Positions 26,038 through 55,571 of a DNA stretch of 57,684 nt are shown one piece after another. The notes under the pieces were generated by a model. That model was not told the DNA's origin. It saw nothing but the letters and a program-made list of their open reading frames with translations, and ran no database searches. Both the position numbers and the translations under genes were made by a program. Numbering within the stretch: position 1 is the first letter of the stretch; every line of letters starts with the position of its first letter. This DNA comes from Candidatus Doudnabacteria bacterium (lineage in GTDB: Bacteria > Patescibacteriota > Doudnabacteria > UBA920), in contig JBBRMG010000003.1 of the NCBI GenBank assembly GCA_038230955.1, forward strand, positions 1-57,684, written 5' to 3'.

Positions 26038-26458
26038 CGCGGGGTAGAGCAACTGGCAGCTCGCAAGGCTCAATCTCGAGTAAGTTCTTTTTATGAATAT
26101 CGTCAAAAGTATTCATAGCGTTCGGTAGCACATTGTCTTTGGTCGAATCTGACAAACGTCAGAGGAAGCCGAAGTCTGCTAACTACCGAGAAGCGTTTGA
26201 ACTTATCTCACAATGGGCTGCGCCAGGGGTAACCTTGGTGTGAATTCTATCAAATTCGGGGAAACCTCCAGCAGTGGTAATCCCGAGCCAAGCTCCAAAT
26301 TTGGAGAAGGTGTAGAGACTTAATGGTAGACACCCTAACGCATTTTGCAAGGGTGAAGAGAAAGTCCAGACCACAAATTCGTATATAACGAAGCAGTTAA
26401 AGCTGTAGTGGTATGCATAACCTTGAGGTTCCGGGTTCGAATCCCGGCCCCGCAACCA
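26038..26458 (+). tRNA. Initiator tRNA-fMet(CAT), interrupted by a group I intron
   Basis: Exon 1 26038-26070 (CGCGGGG...CAAGGCT, exactly 33 nt). Exon 2 26416-26458 (CATAACCTTG...CCCCGCAACCA). C1:A72 mismatch typical of initiator tRNA; the joined anticodon arm is CAAGG-CTCATAA-CCTTG. Confidence 0.93.
26071..26415 (+). mobile_element. Group I intron (IC3-like), 345 nt, no ORF
   Basis: Inserted after U33 and ends in G. Core elements: P AAATTCGGGGAAAC (26252), Q AATCCCGAGC (26279), R GTAGAGACTTAATGG (26312), S AAGAGAAAGTCC (26356). IGS TGGGCT (26214-26219) gives the U33-G wobble. Confidence 0.92.
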
Positions 26459-27518: not shown

Positions 27519-30500
27519 ATGCCAGAAAAATTCAAACCGACACCTGAGGAGCTAGGAATAAAGGAAAATCTCGCCGAAAACGAGAAGTCTTTTGATGTTG
27601 TGGAATTAAATACAGAAACAAGTATTGAAGTAAGTAAGAAAGATAAAAAACCCATTGGTTACTGGACGGATGTTTCAGAGGAAGAATTAATTAAAGAAAT
27701 AGAATCCCGAGGCTTAGATCCAAAGAATTTGCCTAGTACGTCAATCTTAAACGAAGTTAACTCTAGCCTAGTTGGGGGTCTTAATAAGAGATACGGTAGT
27801 CTGACCAAAGCAAGAAAAGCTTTAGGAGGAAAAGTTATAAAGCTTGAACCAGGTTATTGGAAGAACATGTCCGAAGAGGAACTTATCGATGAAATGAAAT
27901 CTCGCGGTCTAGATCCGAAAAATTTACCCTCGCAAGCTGAGATGAATGTGCATAATGGAGATTTACTCGGAGGTCTCACGAAACGTTATGGCACTGTTAA
28001 TAAAGCAAGGTTGGCCCTGGGTAGTGAGATTATTCAAAGGGCACGAGGTTATTGGAATAACCTCTCGGAGGAGGGTATGATTCAGGAAATTAAATCACGG
28101 GGTTTAGATCCTAAAGATTTACCCAAAACAAGCATTCTTGAAGAAAATTATTCCGACTTACTTAGTGGCCTAATAATACGCTTTGGTAAGTTGAACGATG
28201 CTCGTGAAGCTTTAGGAGGTCGGATCATTAATAAAGCCCCAGGTTATTGGAAGAATATGTCCGAAGAAGACCTTATAGCAGACATTAAAGCTAGAGGTTT
28301 GGATACTAAAAATTTGCCACTTTGGCCTGAATTAGCAAAAGACCACCCAGATTTAGCCTATGGGCTATCAAGTAAGTTTGGCGGAATGACTAACGCCAGA
28401 GAGAAACTAGGTGGAATACTCAAGATAAAGCCTAAAGGTTATTGGCAAAATATTTCTTTAGAAGATTTGGTTCAAGAAATACAGTCACGGGGACTTGACC
28501 CCAAAGATTTACCTTCAGGAGATACTCTCCGAAATGATAACCCCGATTTAATGGGTGGTTTACAAAGTCGCTTTGGAAGTTTTAATAGGGCTCGTGAAGC
28601 TCTTGGAAGTGAAATTACTCAAAGATCACAAGGTTATTGGAAGAATCTTTCCGAAGAAGACCTTATAACATACATTAAATCTAGAGGTCTTGATCCTAAG
28701 AATCTCCCGACTTATTTAGACTTAAAAAACCATAAAGGTTTGCTTCAAGGATTACAAAAACGATTTGGTAGCTTGCAGGAGGCTCGTATAAAGCTAGGTG
28801 GCGAACCTTTGCTATGGCTACCAGGTCATTGGAGGAATATCTCTATAGAGGATCTCAAGGCCCATATTAAAAAGAAAGGATTTGATCCTGAAAATTTACC
28901 AAGTAATTTAGCGAAAGAAAACCCAGCTCTTACTCATATTTTAAGAACTCGATTCGGAGATATGGCCTCTGCAAGAATAGAATTAGGGGGAGAAAAAGTA
29001 AAAAGACCGCGCGGTTATTGGAAAAATCTGTCAATCGAAAATCTTATACAGGAAATCGAATCGCGTGGCTTAGACCCAAAAAATTTGCCAGGCACTCATG
29101 AATTAGATTCAGATTTAGCAGTAGGGCTAGCGCAACGCTATGGGAGTTTTACCGAGGCTAGGACAGCCGTGGGTGGCGAAGTATTAAAAAGGCGTGGAGG
29201 ATACTGGAAATCTATTAACGAAGAAAAATTAAAGCTAGAGATATTAGAAAGGGGCTTAGATCCACATAACCTCCCTTCTTATAAAATACTTCGAGATACT
29301 CACTCCGATTTAGTGGCTGGGCTTACCCAGCGTTATGGTAGTTTTCCTCGTGCCAGAGAAATGCTTGGTGGGAGGAAATTGAAGAATGAAGCAGGTTATT
29401 GGAACAATATTTCTGAAGAGGAACTGGAAAAAGAAATTCGAGGGCGTGGTTTGGACCCTAAAAATCTTCCAGCCACAGAAGAATTTCAGATTAAGCACTC
29501 CGGATTACTAGCAGGGCTTAGGCAACGGTTTGGTACTCTAAATGAAGCAAGGGAAGCGCTAGGAGGAGTGGTCTCCGCAACATATTCTAAAAATCGTGTC
29601 GATAGGATCATGGGGCATTTGCAGGAGAAAGTAGTAGAAGTAGCTAAAGGCGAAACTGTTGAAGCTAAAGAAATTCAAGATCTGATTAATATCTTTGGTA
29701 ATGCAAATTGTCTTGATATATTATATAAATTTCATCCCGAATATCACAAATTACCAACAGGCAGAGTAAAAAGCATACTGGCAGATTATTTAGGAGAATT
29801 TTTATCAAGTTCAATTCCACTAAATTTGGAAAGTATACCTAATAGGGGTTTGGAATTACTTGAGAATCATACTTTTCAAGATAGCTTGATTGAAATAATC
29901 AAGAATGATGCGTTAAGTTCTTTTAATAAAAAGAAAAAAACTGATTTTTCGGCGAGTCCTCAATTAATAATGACTGAGTATTTAGATAATCTTAGAAACA
30001 TAGGCATTAAATATAATAATACGGATCTATCCTCGGTAATTCAGACAGTAGAGTCATATTATGATTCTCTCTACGAATTAAGCAAGCCAGAAAATATTGT
30101 GGATTTCGTTGATCAAGGGAGGCGATTTCCTGAATTTTATCAGCAAATCAATATTAAAGAAATCGCTGACAAAAAGAAAATTTTGTTGGCAGATGAAATG
30201 GGTGTGGGGAAAAGTGCTTCAGCGATATTAGCTAAAGAGTATATGAATGTTAGGCAAGCCCTAATTGTTGCGCCTAATAATGTGATAGAAACTTGGCGCA
30301 ACTATTTATTAGACAAGATTGGCGAAGATGGAAAGCAAATAGGATATTTTAAAGAAGGCAATGCCCCTAAGGTTTTAATTGTAAACAATTTGAATAGCTT
30401 AGAAGATAAAGATCGGAACGATTATGAGTATATTCTAATTTCTCAGGAAAAATTAAATAAAAAATACACTCAAAAATTGAGTTCGCTAGATTATGAAATG

Positions 30501-43784: not shown

Positions 43785-47213
<3,429 letters not shown>

Positions 47214-51106: not shown

Positions 51107-51892
51107 ATGTTCTTTATAATCATACTTGCATTTTTCATACTAATATTCATCGTCCTGCCGGGCTTGCGAGTTGTTCAGCAATACCAAGAAGGTGTGGTAT
51201 TTCGATTGGGTAAAATCCGCACAACTAAGGGACCGGGACTAAGCATTATTATCCCGTATATTGAATCAATGAAAAAAGTGGACTTGCGCACAGTGACCCT
51301 ACCAATTCCACCACAGCAAATCATCACCAAAGATAATGTCTCTGTTGATGTCTCGGCTGTGGCTTACTACAAGATTGTAGATTCTACGAAAAGTATTGTC
51401 GCTATTGCCGACGTCATGAATGCCATCAACCAGATTGCGCAGACATCCATGCGTAACATTGTCGGTAAGTTTCAGTTGGATGAAATTTTGTCCGAACGCG
51501 AAAGCATCAACAACGAAATTACTAAGGTGCTCGATACCCACACCGAAGAGTGGGGCGTAATTGTTTCCATTGTCGAAATTAAAGACATTCAGTTACCAGA
51601 AGGAATGCAGCGAGCTATGGCCAAGCAAGCAGAAGCGGAACGCGAAAAGCGCGCAAAGATTATTGCTGCTGAAGGTGAGTTCTTGTCTTCTCAAAAGCTG
51701 GCTGATACTGCCGACATTATGGCCGCTCATCCCATTGCATTACAATTGCGCAACTTGCAAACCATGGCCGAAATTAGCGTAGAAAAAAACTCCACTATTA
51801 TTTTCCCGGCTCAATTTATGAGCACTATTACTGATATTCAAAAATTTATTGCTGCCGAAGCCAAGGCTGACACTAAGTCGAACGTTTCTTAA
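51107..51892 (+). CDS. SPFH/band 7 (stomatin-like) protein
   Basis: VVFRLG, ITKDNVSV, AMAKQAEAEREKRAKII, LQLRNLQT. Confidence 0.93.
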   Translation: MFFIIILAFFILIFIVLPGLRVVQQYQEGVVFRLGKIRTTKGPGLSIIIPYIESMKKVDLRTVTLPIPPQQIITKDNVSVDVSAVAYYKIVDSTKSIVAIADVMNAINQIAQTSMRNIVGKFQLDEILSERESINNEITKVLDTHTEEWGVIVSIVEIKDIQLPEGMQRAMAKQAEAEREKRAKIIAAEGEFLSSQKLADTADIMAAHPIALQLRNLQTMAEISVEKNSTIIFPAQFMSTITDIQKFIAAEAKADTKSNVS

Positions 51893-51902
51893 TATCAATC
51901 AC

Positions 51903-52262
51903 ATGCAACACATCAAAAAAATCTATCTCTATGTAGTATCCCTAGTCGGTTTAATAATCCTAATTGTTGCCGGCGTTACTCTTATCAATATGGGCTTAAA
52001 AGCTTGGGTGTTTACAAAGGCTGACAGTAATATTGGTTACGCTCCGCAAATTTCCTGTGCCCAACCTCCATCTGCCCCAGACACCACCAACGCTAAGCCA
52101 CCAGAATGCAGTGATCCGAATTACGCTGCTAAGCAAAAGCAAATTGAGACTGACCAACGGGCGGCCCAGCGCCAAAGTGATGCGGCACACGCTATAGCTA
52201 TGATCATTGTCGGCGTTCCGGTATTTGTGTATCACTGGAGATTAGCTCGCAAAGAAGCATAA
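51903..52262 (+). CDS. Small 2-TM hypothetical protein (DUF5671-like)
   Basis: KKIYLYVVSLVGL...AIAMIIVGVPVFVYHWR; start at ATG 51903. Confidence 0.65.
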   Translation: MQHIKKIYLYVVSLVGLIILIVAGVTLINMGLKAWVFTKADSNIGYAPQISCAQPPSAPDTTNAKPPECSDPNYAAKQKQIETDQRAAQRQSDAAHAIAMIIVGVPVFVYHWRLARKEA

Positions 52263-53041: not shown

Positions 53042-53650
53042 ATGATTCTTTCAGACCGCGACATTAAAAAGGCCATTGCCGACAAACGAATTATCATCAC
53101 CCCAAAACCAGACTACAACGTCCAATTGGGGGCTTGTAGTATCGACTTGCATCTCGACAATAAATTCAGAGTGTTCCATAACTCCAAGTATCCCTACATT
53201 GATTTGCGGAACCCAGTGGACATGAGCAAGATTATGGAAGAGCGGATTCTTAAAAAAGATGAGCCATTCATAATGCAGCCAGGGGACTTCGCTTTAGTGA
53301 CGACCGTAGAGAATTTGGAAATTTCCAATGACTTGTTGGGCCGGATTGAAGGCCGATCTTCTTTAGGGCGGCTTGGTATTATAGTTCACGGCACCGCTTC
53401 TATATTTGATCCCGGTTGGATAGGGAAGCCAACCATGGAGCTGGGTAACCTTGGCACTATGCCCGTAGCTTTGTACCCGGGAATGCGTATTTGTGCTTTT
53501 ACTTTTGAAGAAGTATCGAGTCCGGTAGAAGTACCGTATCGTGACAAGAAGAATAACAAGTACGCTGGACAGACTGATCCGCGGGCTTCTAGACTGAACG
53601 AAGAAATGAGTAAAGGCAGATCTAAGAGTACGACCAAGCGCAAAAATTAA
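53042..53650 (+). CDS. dcd: dCTP deaminase
   Basis: MILSDRDI, SIDLHL, EGRSSLGRLG, DPGWIG, LYPGMRIC. Confidence 0.95.
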   Translation: MILSDRDIKKAIADKRIIITPKPDYNVQLGACSIDLHLDNKFRVFHNSKYPYIDLRNPVDMSKIMEERILKKDEPFIMQPGDFALVTTVENLEISNDLLGRIEGRSSLGRLGIIVHGTASIFDPGWIGKPTMELGNLGTMPVALYPGMRICAFTFEEVSSPVEVPYRDKKNNKYAGQTDPRASRLNEEMSKGRSKSTTKRKN

Positions 53651-53661
53651 TTATACAAACC

Positions 53662-53688
53662 AAAACCGCTCCACAGGGAGCGGTTTTT
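53662..53688. terminator. Bidirectional terminator
   Basis: AAAACCGCTCC-ACAG-GGAGCGGTTTT. Confidence 0.82.
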
Positions 53689-53798
53689 ATTTTGCTTCAA
53701 ACCATTGTGATTTTATAAAGCGTGACCTGATATCTATATAAAGATTAGGCTATATATTAACTGATGTCAATACTATATTATAAAATCTTTCTAAAATC

Positions 53799-53870
53799 TG
53801 GTGGACCTGAGGGGAGTTACACCCCTGAAGCACAGATATCAAGCCAGGCTTCGACAATTGGCCCAGGCCC
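53799..53870 (-). ncRNA. 72-nt tRNA-like RNA resembling the tmRNA tRNA-like domain
   Basis: GGGCCTG/CAGGTCC acceptor with G3:U70, discriminator A and CCA; T stem AGGGG/CCCCT with loop TGTAACT; no D stem; GAAGC/GCTTC helix. Confidence 0.7.
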
Positions 53871-53880
53871 CCAGAAATTA

Positions 53881-53889
53881 ACCATAGCA
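53881..53889 (-). promoter_or_regulatory. Extended -10 promoter for the tRNA-like RNA
   Basis: TGCTATGGT, ending 10 nt upstream of G1. Confidence 0.5.
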
Positions 53890-54057
53890 AAACACAGTTC
53901 ACCAAAAGTTAAATGAAAAGTCAATTCCAAATAAAAACAGAAGGGCGGCGAATTTTACTCTTATTGATATAGCAATCATTGACACTTAATTAAATCCATA
54001 GTACATTGGGGGTATTCTTATTGACGCGTAAATCAGATTTACGTAGAAATAGAAAAT

Positions 54058-54411
54058 ATGACGAAATCACAGGAGAGAGTTATGCTTTTTGAAAGAAATA
54101 TTGATGACACAACCGGTGCTATCATGATGGTCGTGTTCATTACCGTATTCATTGTAGTTTTATTCTGGCTCCGTAGAATTCGACGAAACCCCAAGCCGGG
54201 ATCGACCAGTCCATTTGTCGATGGCGATAATTCAGGCCTGAGTCAACTTGTCGATGACGACGATTCCAGCCTTAATGGAACTAGTCCAAAAGAACCGATA
54301 CCGCATTCTCCCGACCCGGTCTACACGGATTTTGTGAACAGCGGTTCGCGCTTAGGCCAACAGCCAGCGCAAAAACGAGGTCCACCTCTCAGCACAGAGA
54401 AAGACGATTAA
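54058..54411 (+). CDS. Hypothetical single-TM protein with a disordered tail
   Basis: TM AIMMVVFITVFIVVLFWL; terminator follows. Confidence 0.6.
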   Translation: MTKSQERVMLFERNIDDTTGAIMMVVFITVFIVVLFWLRRIRRNPKPGSTSPFVDGDNSGLSQLVDDDDSSLNGTSPKEPIPHSPDPVYTDFVNSGSRLGQQPAQKRGPPLSTEKDD

Positions 54412-54434
54412 CACTGCGGCCACATATAACGTAG

Positions 54435-54509
54435 CAGCGAAGTTTCCCTAGGAGCTTCGCTGATTTTTTTTATACCAAAAACTGCCTCGAATGGTGAGGC
54501 AGTTTTTTT
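54435..54509. terminator. Two tandem terminator hairpins between convergent genes
   Basis: CAGCGAAG/CTTCGCTG with a T-tract; AAAAACTGCCTC/GAGGCAGTTTTT. Confidence 0.75.
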
Positions 54510-54614
54510 CAAACCAAATTACTTACCTTTTTTTGGTTTCTTCTTTTCTTTTTTTTGAGAATTGTTGCCTTTGGCCATATGTTTATATTACTTTTAGTTA
54601 GTATACATTAAATC

Positions 54615-55571
54615 TTACCCTTCAAACAATCCACCAGCCACTGTCAGCTCGCCTCTCAAGCCAGGATGCGGATCATAACCCTCTAAAATGGCATACTCGG
54701 GGCGGAAGTCATCTATATCTTGCACGCTCGGGTCAATCTTTAAAGTCGGAAAAGGTTTAGGCTCACGAGACAACTGGTCTTTCACTTGCTCCATGTGATT
54801 TTCATAAATATGCGCGTCTCCAAACGTATGAACAAATTCACCGGGCTGATAACCCGTCACTTGCGCCAGAATTATAGTCAGCAGGGCGTAACTAGCAATG
54901 TTAAATGGCACACCCAAGAATAAGTCAGCACTACGCTGATACAACTGTAAATTCAATTTGCCCTCTTTCATACTAATCTGATACATGTTATGACAAATAG
55001 GGAAGCGGGATGCATCTTCATTTGTCGCCATGGTATAGAGATATTCCGGGTTCCAGGAATTGACGATTAAATTACGCGCATCGGGATCATCTTTTAACTC
55101 CTGAATAACCCACTTCAATTGGTCAACGGTACGGTCAGTGCGAGTGGGCCAACGACGCCACATTTCACCGTAAATTCGTTTTAATTCGCCGTATTTTAAA
55201 GCGAACTGTTCATCGTCCACAATTTTTTGAACAAAGTCATGTTTGGTCATTGTTGGGACAGATCCTTGCTCCGCCAATTTGTTGTACATCTTAAACGGGT
55301 AGTCGTTCCAAATATGCACGCCATTTTGGGCCAGGTACCTAATATTGGATTGCCCTGACATGAACCAGTACAACTCTTGCAATACGCCCTTCCAGTAAAC
55401 ACGCTTAGTCGTTAACAACGGAAACCCTTTAGATAAGTCGTAGCGAGTCTGACGACCAAACACACTGTACGATACAGCGCCGGTACCACGATCGACATTT
55501 TTAATGCCATGCTCCTGCACTTCTTTTAACAAATTGAGATATTGAAACTCCGGGTGATTTTGGTCTGACAT
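54615..55571 (-). CDS. thyA: Thymidylate synthase
   Basis: DRGTG, FPLLTTKRVYW, ELYWF, PICH, YQRSADLFLGVPFNIASY, GDAHIYENH. Confidence 0.97.
   Translation of the reverse strand: MSDQNHPEFQYLNLLKEVQEHGIKNVDRGTGAVSYSVFGRQTRYDLSKGFPLLTTKRVYWKGVLQELYWFMSGQSNIRYLAQNGVHIWNDYPFKMYNKLAEQGSVPTMTKHDFVQKIVDDEQFALKYGELKRIYGEMWRRWPTRTDRTVDQLKWVIQELKDDPDARNLIVNSWNPEYLYTMATNEDASRFPICHNMYQISMKEGKLNLQLYQRSADLFLGVPFNIASYALLTIILAQVTGYQPGEFVHTFGDAHIYENHMEQVKDQLSREPKPFPTLKIDPSVQDIDDFRPEYAILEGYDPHPGLRGELTVAGGLFEG

Follow-up and report, generated by a model that had tools for sequence, protein, structure and literature searches.

A tag-less tmRNA-like RNA gene and a complementary neighbouring segment in a lineage-specific insert of a Patescibacteria chromosome

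What is the tRNA-like domain of a transfer-messenger RNA (tmRNA) doing in a bacterial chromosome when the message part is missing from it? This question is raised by a 72-nt element in a stretch of 57,684 nucleotides from Candidatus Doudnabacteria (GenBank assembly GCA_038230955.1, contig JBBRMG010000003.1), hereafter the window, which is chromosomal DNA of a Patescibacteria (candidate phyla radiation, CPR) bacterium assembled from a sediment metagenome. The element is a gene for a tmRNA-like RNA that consists of the tRNA-like domain (TLD) only, and it is referred to here as the mini-TLD. In bacteria, ribosome rescue by tmRNA and SmpB is regarded as one near-universal, essential-like pathway. 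In this analysis, the mini-TLD was identified as a real feature of tmRNA type, located in an insert that the nearest relatives lack and accompanied by a segment that is specifically complementary to it. We estimate a probability of about one half that the two make up a genuine module of two RNAs with a TLD-only tmRNA mimic at its core.

Anatomy of the 72-nt element

In an initial annotation of this DNA, the element had been described as an alanine-type TLD of the tmRNA kind without an mRNA-like domain. The 72-nt sequence quoted there was found to be exact on the minus strand (53870..53799), and all the described parts were verified:

53799..53870, minus strand: mini-TLD (TLD-only tmRNA-like RNA gene), 72 nt, read from the sequence
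nt 1-7/62-68: acceptor, GGGCCUG/CAGGUCC, 7/7 paired, with G3:U70
nt 8-20: D-loop, no D stem, UCGA at nt 17-20
nt 19-23/40-44: P2 helix, GAAGC/GCUUC, 16 nt enclosed
nt 45-61: T arm, stem AGGGG/CCCCU (5 Watson-Crick pairs), loop UGUAACU
3' end: A73, then encoded CCA

The alanine identity set of G3:U70 and A73 is complete, as had been claimed, and G1:C72 and G2:C71 accompany it. Alanyl-tRNA synthetase (AlaRS) needs only the acceptor helix, and G3:U70, A73 and the stack of acceptor and T arm suffice for recognition by AlaRS and RNase P. No open reading frame (ORF) for a tag was observed in any frame of the mini-TLD, whose P2 strands are only 16 nt apart, and neither the pseudoknots PK1-PK4 nor the long P2 helix is present in its total of 72 nt. 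Having no resume codon or tag, the mini-TLD would be unable to complete trans-translation. Additionally, folding, ARAGORN and Rfam revealed no cloverleaf, D arm, anticodon arm or 7-nt anticodon loop of the tRNA family (RF00005).

The prediction that tRNA scanners would overlook the element was borne out. ARAGORN called four ordinary tRNAs in the window, with the mini-TLD not among them, and Rfam at gathering thresholds gave no match at its position. In the local region, even at E<=10, no tRNA, tmRNA (RF00023) or mitochondrial tmRNA (mt-tmRNA, RF02544) match to it was obtained. The models for permuted two-piece tmRNAs (RF04321, RF01849-51) also returned no match to it in the Rfam scans, and the 5' strand precedes the 3' strand inside the 72 nt, which upholds the earlier exclusion of a permuted two-piece gene. 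With no call from ARAGORN or Rfam, an ordinary tRNA, a degenerate tRNA-Ala, an mt-tmRNA and a permuted tmRNA were ruled out.

The expectation by chance was estimated in shuffled windows under two definitions. The loose definition (seven pairs, of which any number may be G:U, followed by a 5-bp stem that closes a 7-nt loop and by NCCA) gave 0.54 matches per shuffled window, and the real window contains two plainly spurious ones; since this architecture is common in shuffles, the bare shape is weak evidence. The strict definition (at most one G:U in the acceptor, an all-Watson-Crick T stem, and U54/R57/A58) was matched in 2 of 1000 shuffled windows, and in 0 of 1000 when G3:U70 and A73 were added. 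In the real window, three true tRNAs and the mini-TLD pass it, and nothing else does. A chance origin was rejected under the strict definition. The minimum-energy fold retains the acceptor and the T arm, both for the mini-TLD alone and in a 226-nt context, while the folding energy by itself is unremarkable (z = -1.8). The mini-TLD is a real feature.

Affinity to Patescibacteria tmRNAs and to other TLD-only genes

A pattern of UCCACCA after a G/C-rich T stem with the loop UGUAACU was used to scan 185,579 species genomes. One meaningful match was returned, the full-length tmRNA of a Candidatus Saccharibacteria metagenome-assembled genome (L010, Rfam 68 bits), and the same scan of a metagenome collection (241M contigs) added two more full-length tmRNAs (L018 and L021, 64-66 bits). 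L021 represents a Patescibacteria lineage near Kerfeld- and Veblenbacteria and carries ssrA just upstream of infC. The ssrA genes of the clade were reached by following infC from L021 into relatives; the conserved neighbours of the L010 and L018 tmRNAs offered no route to them. In L028, a normal block of smpB (1535-1981), a 385-nt ssrA (94 bits), infC, rpmI, rplT and argS was observed (L028 1535-5505), on the same 96-kb contig as a dcd gene 73% identical to dcd of the window. In L030, ssrA likewise precedes infC, and a GIY-YIG gene has come to lie between the two. The tmRNA genes are located as follows:

L010, 2-388, minus strand: tmRNA
L018, 572-891, minus strand: tmRNA
L021, 3-386, plus strand: tmRNA
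L028, 2039-2423, plus strand: tmRNA
L030, 47-426, plus strand: tmRNA

The T-loop of the mini-TLD had been regarded as non-canonical. UGUAACU is instead native to Patescibacteria tmRNAs, and the loop of the mini-TLD is that of L021 and L018. As a group, these tmRNAs exhibit G55 T-loops (UGUAACU, with UGCAAGU and UGCAACU in L028 and L030) and D-loops without the usual GG; permuted tmRNAs likewise possess G55-type T-loops (UGUAACU and UGCAAnU). Furthermore, the D-loop lies outside the search pattern, and its core in the mini-TLD (CCAAUU) is the core of L021 and L030 (UUUACCAAUUUGAUAG). The UCGA at nt 17-20 occupies the same positions as in tmRNA. The acceptor and T stems differ from those of L018 and L021 only in whole base-pair swaps, and the acceptor is one swap away from L018. 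Because T-loop and D-loop core match, the mini-TLD is assigned to the TLDs of Patescibacteria-type tmRNA; together with the anatomy, this likeness supports the earlier description of a tmRNA-type TLD without an mRNA-like domain. Judged by its sequence, the mini-TLD resembles the tmRNAs of its lineage more closely than the tRNAs, and it is probably an extra copy, since relatives keep the normal smpB-ssrA-infC locus. ARAGORN also missed the full-length L010 tmRNA, the only one tested with it. TLD-only genes are probably under-counted, because ARAGORN and Rfam miss them and even a full-length CPR tmRNA of the G55 type escaped ARAGORN.

TLD-only tmRNAs have been described before. Hudson, Lau and Williams include in their tmRNA census an entry "Mycobacterium phage DS6A (TLD only)" (PMC4131195), which corresponds to tmID 11587 of the tmRNA Website (Mao et al. 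2009, as cited in PMC4131195 and PMC11915505). A DS6A-like molecule is a strong inhibitor of tmRNA whether or not it can be charged, perhaps through SmpB titration (PMC4131195), and in E. coli the endogenous tmRNA is inhibited by the DS6A form (PMC11915505). In organelles, two plastid tmRNA genes of ~65 bp without a coding sequence (CDS-less; Mallomonadaceae) and mitochondrial tmRNAs without a tag frame are described (PMC11915505), the CDS-less mitochondrial forms of jakobids and oomycetes being attributed to Jacob et al. 2004 and Hafez et al. 2013, as cited in PMC6514570. The initial annotation had pointed to mitochondrial forms; the closest precedent of the mini-TLD is rather the TLD-only tmRNA of mycobacteriophage DS6A (PMC4131195, PMC11915505). 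A relaxed scan of viral contigs in IMG/VR (T-loop UGNAANU, UCGA within 18-40 nt) gave 48 loci, mostly known permuted two-piece tmRNAs, and included five distinct standard-order mini-TLDs of 70-83 nt, which are unannotated. The phage and viral genes are:

JN698994 (L079), 28478-28557, plus strand: TLD-only ssrA of DS6A in the gp33/gp34 gap, not annotated in GenBank, CCA not encoded
L032, 3675-3755, plus strand: viral mini-TLD, 81 nt
L041, 5907-5976, minus strand, and L070, 5259-5328, minus strand: viral mini-TLD, 70 nt
L054, 8948-9030, minus strand, and L060, 12357-12439, plus strand: viral mini-TLD, 83 nt
L059, 1224-1303, plus strand: viral mini-TLD, 80 nt
L063, 8046-8118, minus strand: viral mini-TLD, 73 nt

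The TLD of L032 alone reaches 48.1 bits against the Rfam tmRNA gathering threshold of 47 bits, and the mini-TLD of the window falls below that threshold. A motif, GCCGAAGYGCA, is common to the inner loops of L032 and L059.

A covariance model (R1) was built from DS6A and four viral mini-TLDs, leaving out the mini-TLD of the window. With R1, the latter is the top match in the window (34.5 bits, E 2e-6), where the true tRNAs score 16-22 bits. The training members reach 72-89 bits, the held-out L032 62.6 bits, and the 3' halves of ordinary and permuted tmRNAs 25-38 bits. The score of the window element is contributed by the acceptor, the T arm and ACCA, with a misfit in the D-loop and in the junction before the T arm. 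Segment by segment, its plan matches those of DS6A and the five viral mini-TLDs. In the seven mini-TLDs, pairing is retained in 98% of cells, and changes on both sides are seen at 10 of the 15 pairs, in an alignment that is fitted to the model, so that these counts lean to structure; G1:C72, G2:C71, G3:U70 and G7:C66 are invariant. In architecture and ancestry the window mini-TLD is TLD-only, and its origin is probably Patescibacterial and independent of the phage genes.

The lineage-specific insert and the complementary segment

In the closest relatives compared, dcd and thyA are convergent and 24-75 bp apart, with only a terminator homologous to 53662-53687 between them. The dcd genes of these relatives are 83% (L001), 79% (L002 and L003) and 89% (L015) identical to that of the window, and the insertion site is empty in all of them. 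In the window, an insert of ~925 bp (about 53695 to 54619) separates the dcd terminator from the 3' end of thyA. Because the nearest relatives lack it, these ~925 bp represent an insertion in the lineage of the window, and a syntenic conservation of the element beside dcd was rejected for the same reason. An independent per-run assembly of the source sample (Logan) contains a 1001-nt contig that equals 53164-54164 with zero differences, and more contigs reach into thyA. The identity of this independent assembly shows that insert and locus are not a binning or assembly artefact. A protein-free block of 407 bp (53651-54057) inside the ~925-bp insert is accompanied by an orphan ORF, here ORF117. 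The features of the region, in order, are:

53042-53650, plus strand: dcd
53662-53687, both strands: bidirectional intrinsic terminator (terminator scan), ancestral, homologous to the dcd terminator of the insert-free L015
53695..53705, plus strand: left copy of an 11-nt direct repeat, CTTCAAACCAT, at the insert edge as positioned against L015
53717..53738, minus strand: anti-TLD segment, UAUAGAUAUCAGGUCACGCUUU, complementary to mini-TLD nt 19-40, 61 nt downstream of the mini-TLD
53742..53770, minus strand: putative partner promoter, -35 TTGACA (53770-53765), 17 nt, weak -10 TAATCT (53747-53742)
53889-53881, minus strand: possible extended -10 of the mini-TLD, TGcTATGGT, 10 nt upstream of G1, as suggested by the sequence
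53924-53896, minus strand: alternative mini-TLD promoter, TTGACT (53924-53919), 17 nt, TGAACT (53901-53896)
54058..54411, plus strand: ORF117, orphan, 117 codons, one transmembrane helix, acidic low-complexity tail, 33-nt tandem repeat
54435-54462, plus strand: first terminator of ORF117
54477-54507, bidirectional: second terminator of ORF117, a perfect 12-bp inverted repeat that now serves thyA too
54615-55571, minus strand: thyA
54620-54630: right copy of the 11-nt direct repeat, CTTCAAACAAT, within the last thyA codons

The 11-nt direct repeat may be a target duplication bounding the ~925 bp; it is not significant alone. An att remnant of an island in ssrA was rejected: the 5' strand and the D-loop of the mini-TLD are present and complementary, such remnants comprise the 3' part only, and the insertion site is not ssrA in the relatives.

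The picture of a self-contained transcription unit given in the initial annotation holds in part. The proposed extended -10 (TGcTATGGT) is indeed present, but the consensus promoter scan does not flag it. The bidirectional terminator exists as well, but it lies 111 nt past the CCA and not directly after it; it would also end minus-strand transcripts coming from the insert. The gene is tRNA-like, as stated, but to call it stand-alone passes over its location in a lineage-specific insert together with an orphan ORF and a same-strand complementary segment.

This complementary segment is the second component of the proposed module. Its 22-nt pairing with the P2 arm and loop of the mini-TLD consists of 16 Watson-Crick pairs, 5 G:U pairs and 1 mismatch. 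Ungapped-segment and cofold tests of the partner were used in place of unconstrained RNAduplex energy, which is uninformative. The ungapped antisense score is 34, and the maximum among 795 equally long pieces of the window is 32. In cofolding, the heterodimer has a ddG of -9.3 kcal/mol; shuffled seeds gain 1.8 kcal/mol on average and 6.4 kcal/mol at best, with 0 of 300 equalling the real one, and with the tRNAs of the window or the tmRNAs of the clade the gain of this partner is no more than 1.2-3.4 kcal/mol. The acceptor helix of the mini-TLD is lost in the predicted dimer. The putative promoter predicts a partner start near 53735, where the complementary segment begins, and the bidirectional terminator follows ~30 nt later. 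We propose that the anti-TLD segment is the 5' seed of a partner small RNA of ~75 nt.

Among DS6A and the viral mini-TLDs, no comparable antisense flank was observed, with L059 as a borderline case: a 14-nt perfect antisense match to its inner loop (AGGCCGAAGCGCAC / GUGCGCUUCGGCUU) is found within 300 nt on the opposite strand, at a background of 1/25. Inverted repeats (GATTTTATAAAG / CTTTCTAAAATC, 53709-53720 / 53787-53798) and an 11-nt tandem repeat (53778-53799) were noted in the trailer that separates the anti-TLD segment from the CCA; according to the fold, they would mask the anti-TLD seed in a read-through transcript. Directly 3' of the CCA, a 34-mer (53766-53799) that is not repeated in the window is matched with 3 mismatches by a 311-nt contig of the source sample (depth 8); this contig matches only these 34 nt and diverges exactly at 53799.

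ORF117 is divergent from the mini-TLD and has its own near-consensus promoter (53979-54007, TTGACA-17-TACATT). Its codon-usage score of 0.22 is at the bottom of the range of real genes. Among 5.8 billion proteins it yielded a self-match only, and no Pfam or PHROG match was obtained. The units of its 33-nt tandem repeat (54208-54272) carry CCATTTGTCGA / CAACTTGTCGA, which are like the D-loop of the mini-TLD (CCAATTGTCGA). Together with GAGGTCCACCT downstream, the repeat units mimic the 5' and 3' ends of the mini-TLD, in order, on the plus strand. For instance, 54235-54254 matches nt 2-20 at 17/20, and 54376-54386 resembles the 3' end; among 282 controls, none has the two look-alikes in this order. 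Within ORF117, a further tmRNA-like gene of larger size on the plus strand (54234-54387) was considered and rejected, with no T arm and no Rfam or R1 match. The look-alikes at 54234-54387 are possibly duplication debris.

The wider neighbourhood comprises, in order, a sigma factor gene, nusG, rplK, a Band-7 gene, a DUF5671 gene, rplA, dcd, the mini-TLD, ORF117, thyA, a CYTH gene and kinases; xseA, pheS and an intein-containing gyrB are located farther upstream. By annotation of this neighbourhood, no SmpB gene, integrase, phage gene or Fem-type transferase is present near the mini-TLD. The gyrB gene (43788-47213, plus strand) is split by an intein (Pfam Intein_splicing, residues 456-881), and a group I intron (26199-26383) adjoins tRNA-Met(CAT), so that the genome is rich in selfish elements. 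The Band-7/SPFH and DUF5671 membrane-protein genes (51107-52262) are placed between rplK and rplA, which are normally adjacent. In two further contigs, the dcd homologue (L016 1422-2042, L017 1515-2135) matches its database protein only when TGA is read as Trp, indicating that these contigs come from a recoded lineage.

Readings of the locus and comparison with known systems

Under the two-RNA reading, the mini-TLD is a gene for a tag-less "mini-tmRNA" in which everything between the P2 strands, including tag frame and pseudoknots, has been replaced by a 16-nt loop, and the lineage gained it with the ~925-bp insert. The anatomy, the affinity to tmRNA, the insertion and the specific complementarity are supported directly by the analysis. 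Its RNA would be transcribed from the weak or extended -10 promoter, processed at the 5' end by RNase P and charged by AlaRS. A second small unit on the same strand, with a 5' end complementary to the P2 arm, would end at the shared terminator. The mini-TLD RNA would compete with the real tmRNA for SmpB, AlaRS or EF-Tu, as reported for a DS6A-like RNA in E. coli, and pairing of the partner RNA with nt 19-40 would unfold it and so neutralise it. We regard the specific mechanism of interference with SmpB and trans-translation as somewhat unlikely. It is rather unlikely that the insert carries a self-contained, all-RNA control or addiction module of a kind that is mobile in Patescibacteria, in which a stable, alanine-chargeable TLD mimic jams or throttles SmpB rescue (or sequesters AlaRS or EF-Tu) and an antisense RNA encoded just downstream restrains it by unfolding the P2 arm and the acceptor helix. 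Such cassettes would descend from the tmRNA of this lineage and would have arisen separately from the phage mini-tmRNAs.

Several results weigh against a functional module, and a number of them speak for its main competitor, inert debris. Under that explanation, an extra or horizontally acquired ssrA underwent internal deletion and local duplications, and all the pieces are decaying remnants. No homologues of the mini-TLD or the partner were found in the 185k species genomes and 241M metagenome contigs by the exact-loop pattern scans; both scans used the exact T-loop while the clade loop varies, and diverged homologues may exist. The sequence relatives that these scans yielded are only full-length tmRNAs and chance matches. 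A pattern scan of viral contigs and the phage records gave no sequence homologue of the mini-TLD, and the other contigs of the source sample gave no match at 80% likeness, which leaves it a singleton. Among sequencing runs, the locus was matched only in the source sample and in no RNA run. Furthermore, the conserved non-Watson-Crick junction 5'-GA(C/U)...(A/G)GAC-3' beside the T arm is not present in the mini-TLD, which has a fully Watson-Crick GAAG...CUUC instead. All five CPR tmRNAs and all six other mini-TLDs keep this motif or GCAC, and SmpB binding by the mini-TLD is doubtful because the GA/AG junction is missing. With R1 the window mini-TLD is an outlier, its 34.5 bits comparing with 62.6-88.7 for the other mini-TLDs. 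The consensus promoter scan flags neither the mini-TLD promoter nor that of the partner, both of which are weak matches, and unconstrained RNAduplex energy does not single out the partner. Finally, the location in lineage-specific DNA favours debris, as do the partial look-alikes elsewhere in the insert (53718-53735, 54235-54254 and 54376-54386), which would fit local duplication and decay.

Debris is a serious rival because no homologues were found and no RNA run matched. However, the acceptor and the T arm retain each of their 12 stem pairs, together with G3:U70, A73 and the CCA, and the differences from the clade tmRNAs are base-pair swaps that preserve pairing. The lost junction has been replaced by a perfectly complementary GAAG/CUUC, which is not random decay, and the supposed partial copy is oriented for G:U rather than A-C pairs and lies between a TTGACA box and a terminator. 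On this evidence we regard debris as somewhat unlikely.

Alternatively, the locus could act as DNA, with the mini-TLD as a folded recombination site (integron-attC-like or tRNA-homing) of a small cassette and ORF117 as its passenger. An 11-nt direct repeat bounding the insert, a passenger-like orphan ORF with its own signals and several inverted repeats would suit such a cassette, but no recombinase is present in or near the insert, and the insertion site is neither a tRNA nor a tmRNA gene. In addition, an alanine identity set and an encoded CCA would be meaningless for a DNA hairpin, and the G:T at 3:70 and five G:T in the 22-nt repeat would weaken DNA, whereas they are neutral in minus-strand RNA. 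We consider this reading improbable.

The initial annotation had also offered a minimal SmpB partner. Taken as a replacement of tmRNA, this explanation makes the mini-TLD the organism's only rescue RNA: as in the mitochondria of jakobids or oomycetes, the tag-encoding tmRNA would have been lost, leaving the TLD and SmpB to free stalled ribosomes with no tag added. In its favour, tmRNAs of the CDS-less type are recognised alongside SmpB in mitochondria and in two plastids (PMC11915505), genome reduction is typical of CPR bacteria, and Rfam detects no standard tmRNA in the 57.7-kb window. Against it, the window simply does not include infC and rplT, the relative L028 (dcd 73% identical) keeps the normal smpB-ssrA-infC block, and in L021 and L030 ssrA is beside infC. 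The mini-TLD, moreover, is part of an insert absent from closer relatives, and the junction conserved in functional TLDs is missing from it. A role as sole rescue RNA is therefore highly improbable. Weaker still is the suggestion of a dedicated alanine donor for a non-ribosomal reaction (cell-wall cross-bridge or lipid aminoacylation), kept off the ribosome by having no anticodon; the complete AlaRS identity set and the altered T-loops that non-proteinogenic staphylococcal tRNA-Gly species also possess would agree with it, but the T-loop is explained by tmRNA ancestry, the neighbourhood has no gene of the Fem, MurM or MprF type, and the antisense partner and the insert context are left unexplained, so that the proposed cell-wall role found no support and is barely plausible.

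If the two-RNA reading is true, it would suggest that cells, or the mobile DNA they carry, adjust or undermine ribosome rescue by means of RNA alone, and the locus would provide a new example of RNA-versus-RNA control. If the locus is debris, it would be of smaller value, as a case of a tmRNA gene that collapsed to its TLD with every stem kept.

TLD-only tmRNAs are a known but rare kind, and no published description was found of a chromosomal Patescibacteria form with a Watson-Crick junction and an antisense neighbour. With tRNA-Ala and alanine minihelices, the mini-TLD has G3:U70, A73 and the coaxial stack of acceptor and T arm in common, but it is without D stem, anticodon arm and anticodon. 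Organellar CDS-less tmRNAs likewise have no tag frame, and TLD-only forms of ~65 nt exist among them; in contrast to the mini-TLD, which has no RF02544 match even at E<=10, they are mostly permuted and constitute the sole ssrA of the organelle. Small-RNA modules under the control of a cis-encoded or adjacent antisense RNA, after the logic of type I and type III toxin-antitoxin systems, are likewise composed of two adjacent small units with a 5' seed and a terminator hairpin. Compared with them, the insert specifies no toxic peptide or protein, both of its RNAs would be on the same strand and non-overlapping, and the toxicity of the TLD is presumed.

Among the standard Patescibacteria tmRNAs (L021, L030, L028 and L018), the T-loop of the mini-TLD is that of L021 and L018 and its D-loop core that of L021 and L030, and the 3' end UCCACCA is a common feature. 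These tmRNAs are 320-387 nt long, with tag frame and pseudoknots, and belong to the smpB-ssrA-infC block; the mini-TLD has 16 nt in place of ~300 and is located elsewhere. The viral mini-TLDs resemble it in being TLD-only and of standard order, with a G55-type T-loop (UGCAAnU), an encoded CCA, invariant G1-G3/U70-C72 and compensated stems. They differ from it in a common UAGnnUCGA(C/U) D-loop and (G/A)GA(C/A/G) junction, both of which the window mini-TLD lacks. The DS6A gene is phage-borne, with a canonical UUCGAUU T-loop, GG in the D-loop, a UCGAC...GCAC junction, no encoded CCA and no antisense flank, whereas the mini-TLD is chromosomal, of the Patescibacteria TLD type, with a Watson-Crick junction and an antisense neighbour. 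Both nevertheless combine a 7-bp acceptor carrying G3:U70, A73, a stemless D-loop of 13-14 nt ending in UCGA, a short P2 capping a loop of 16-20 nt and a T arm, in ~75-80 nt without tag ORF or pseudoknots, and both are found in acquired or mobile DNA.

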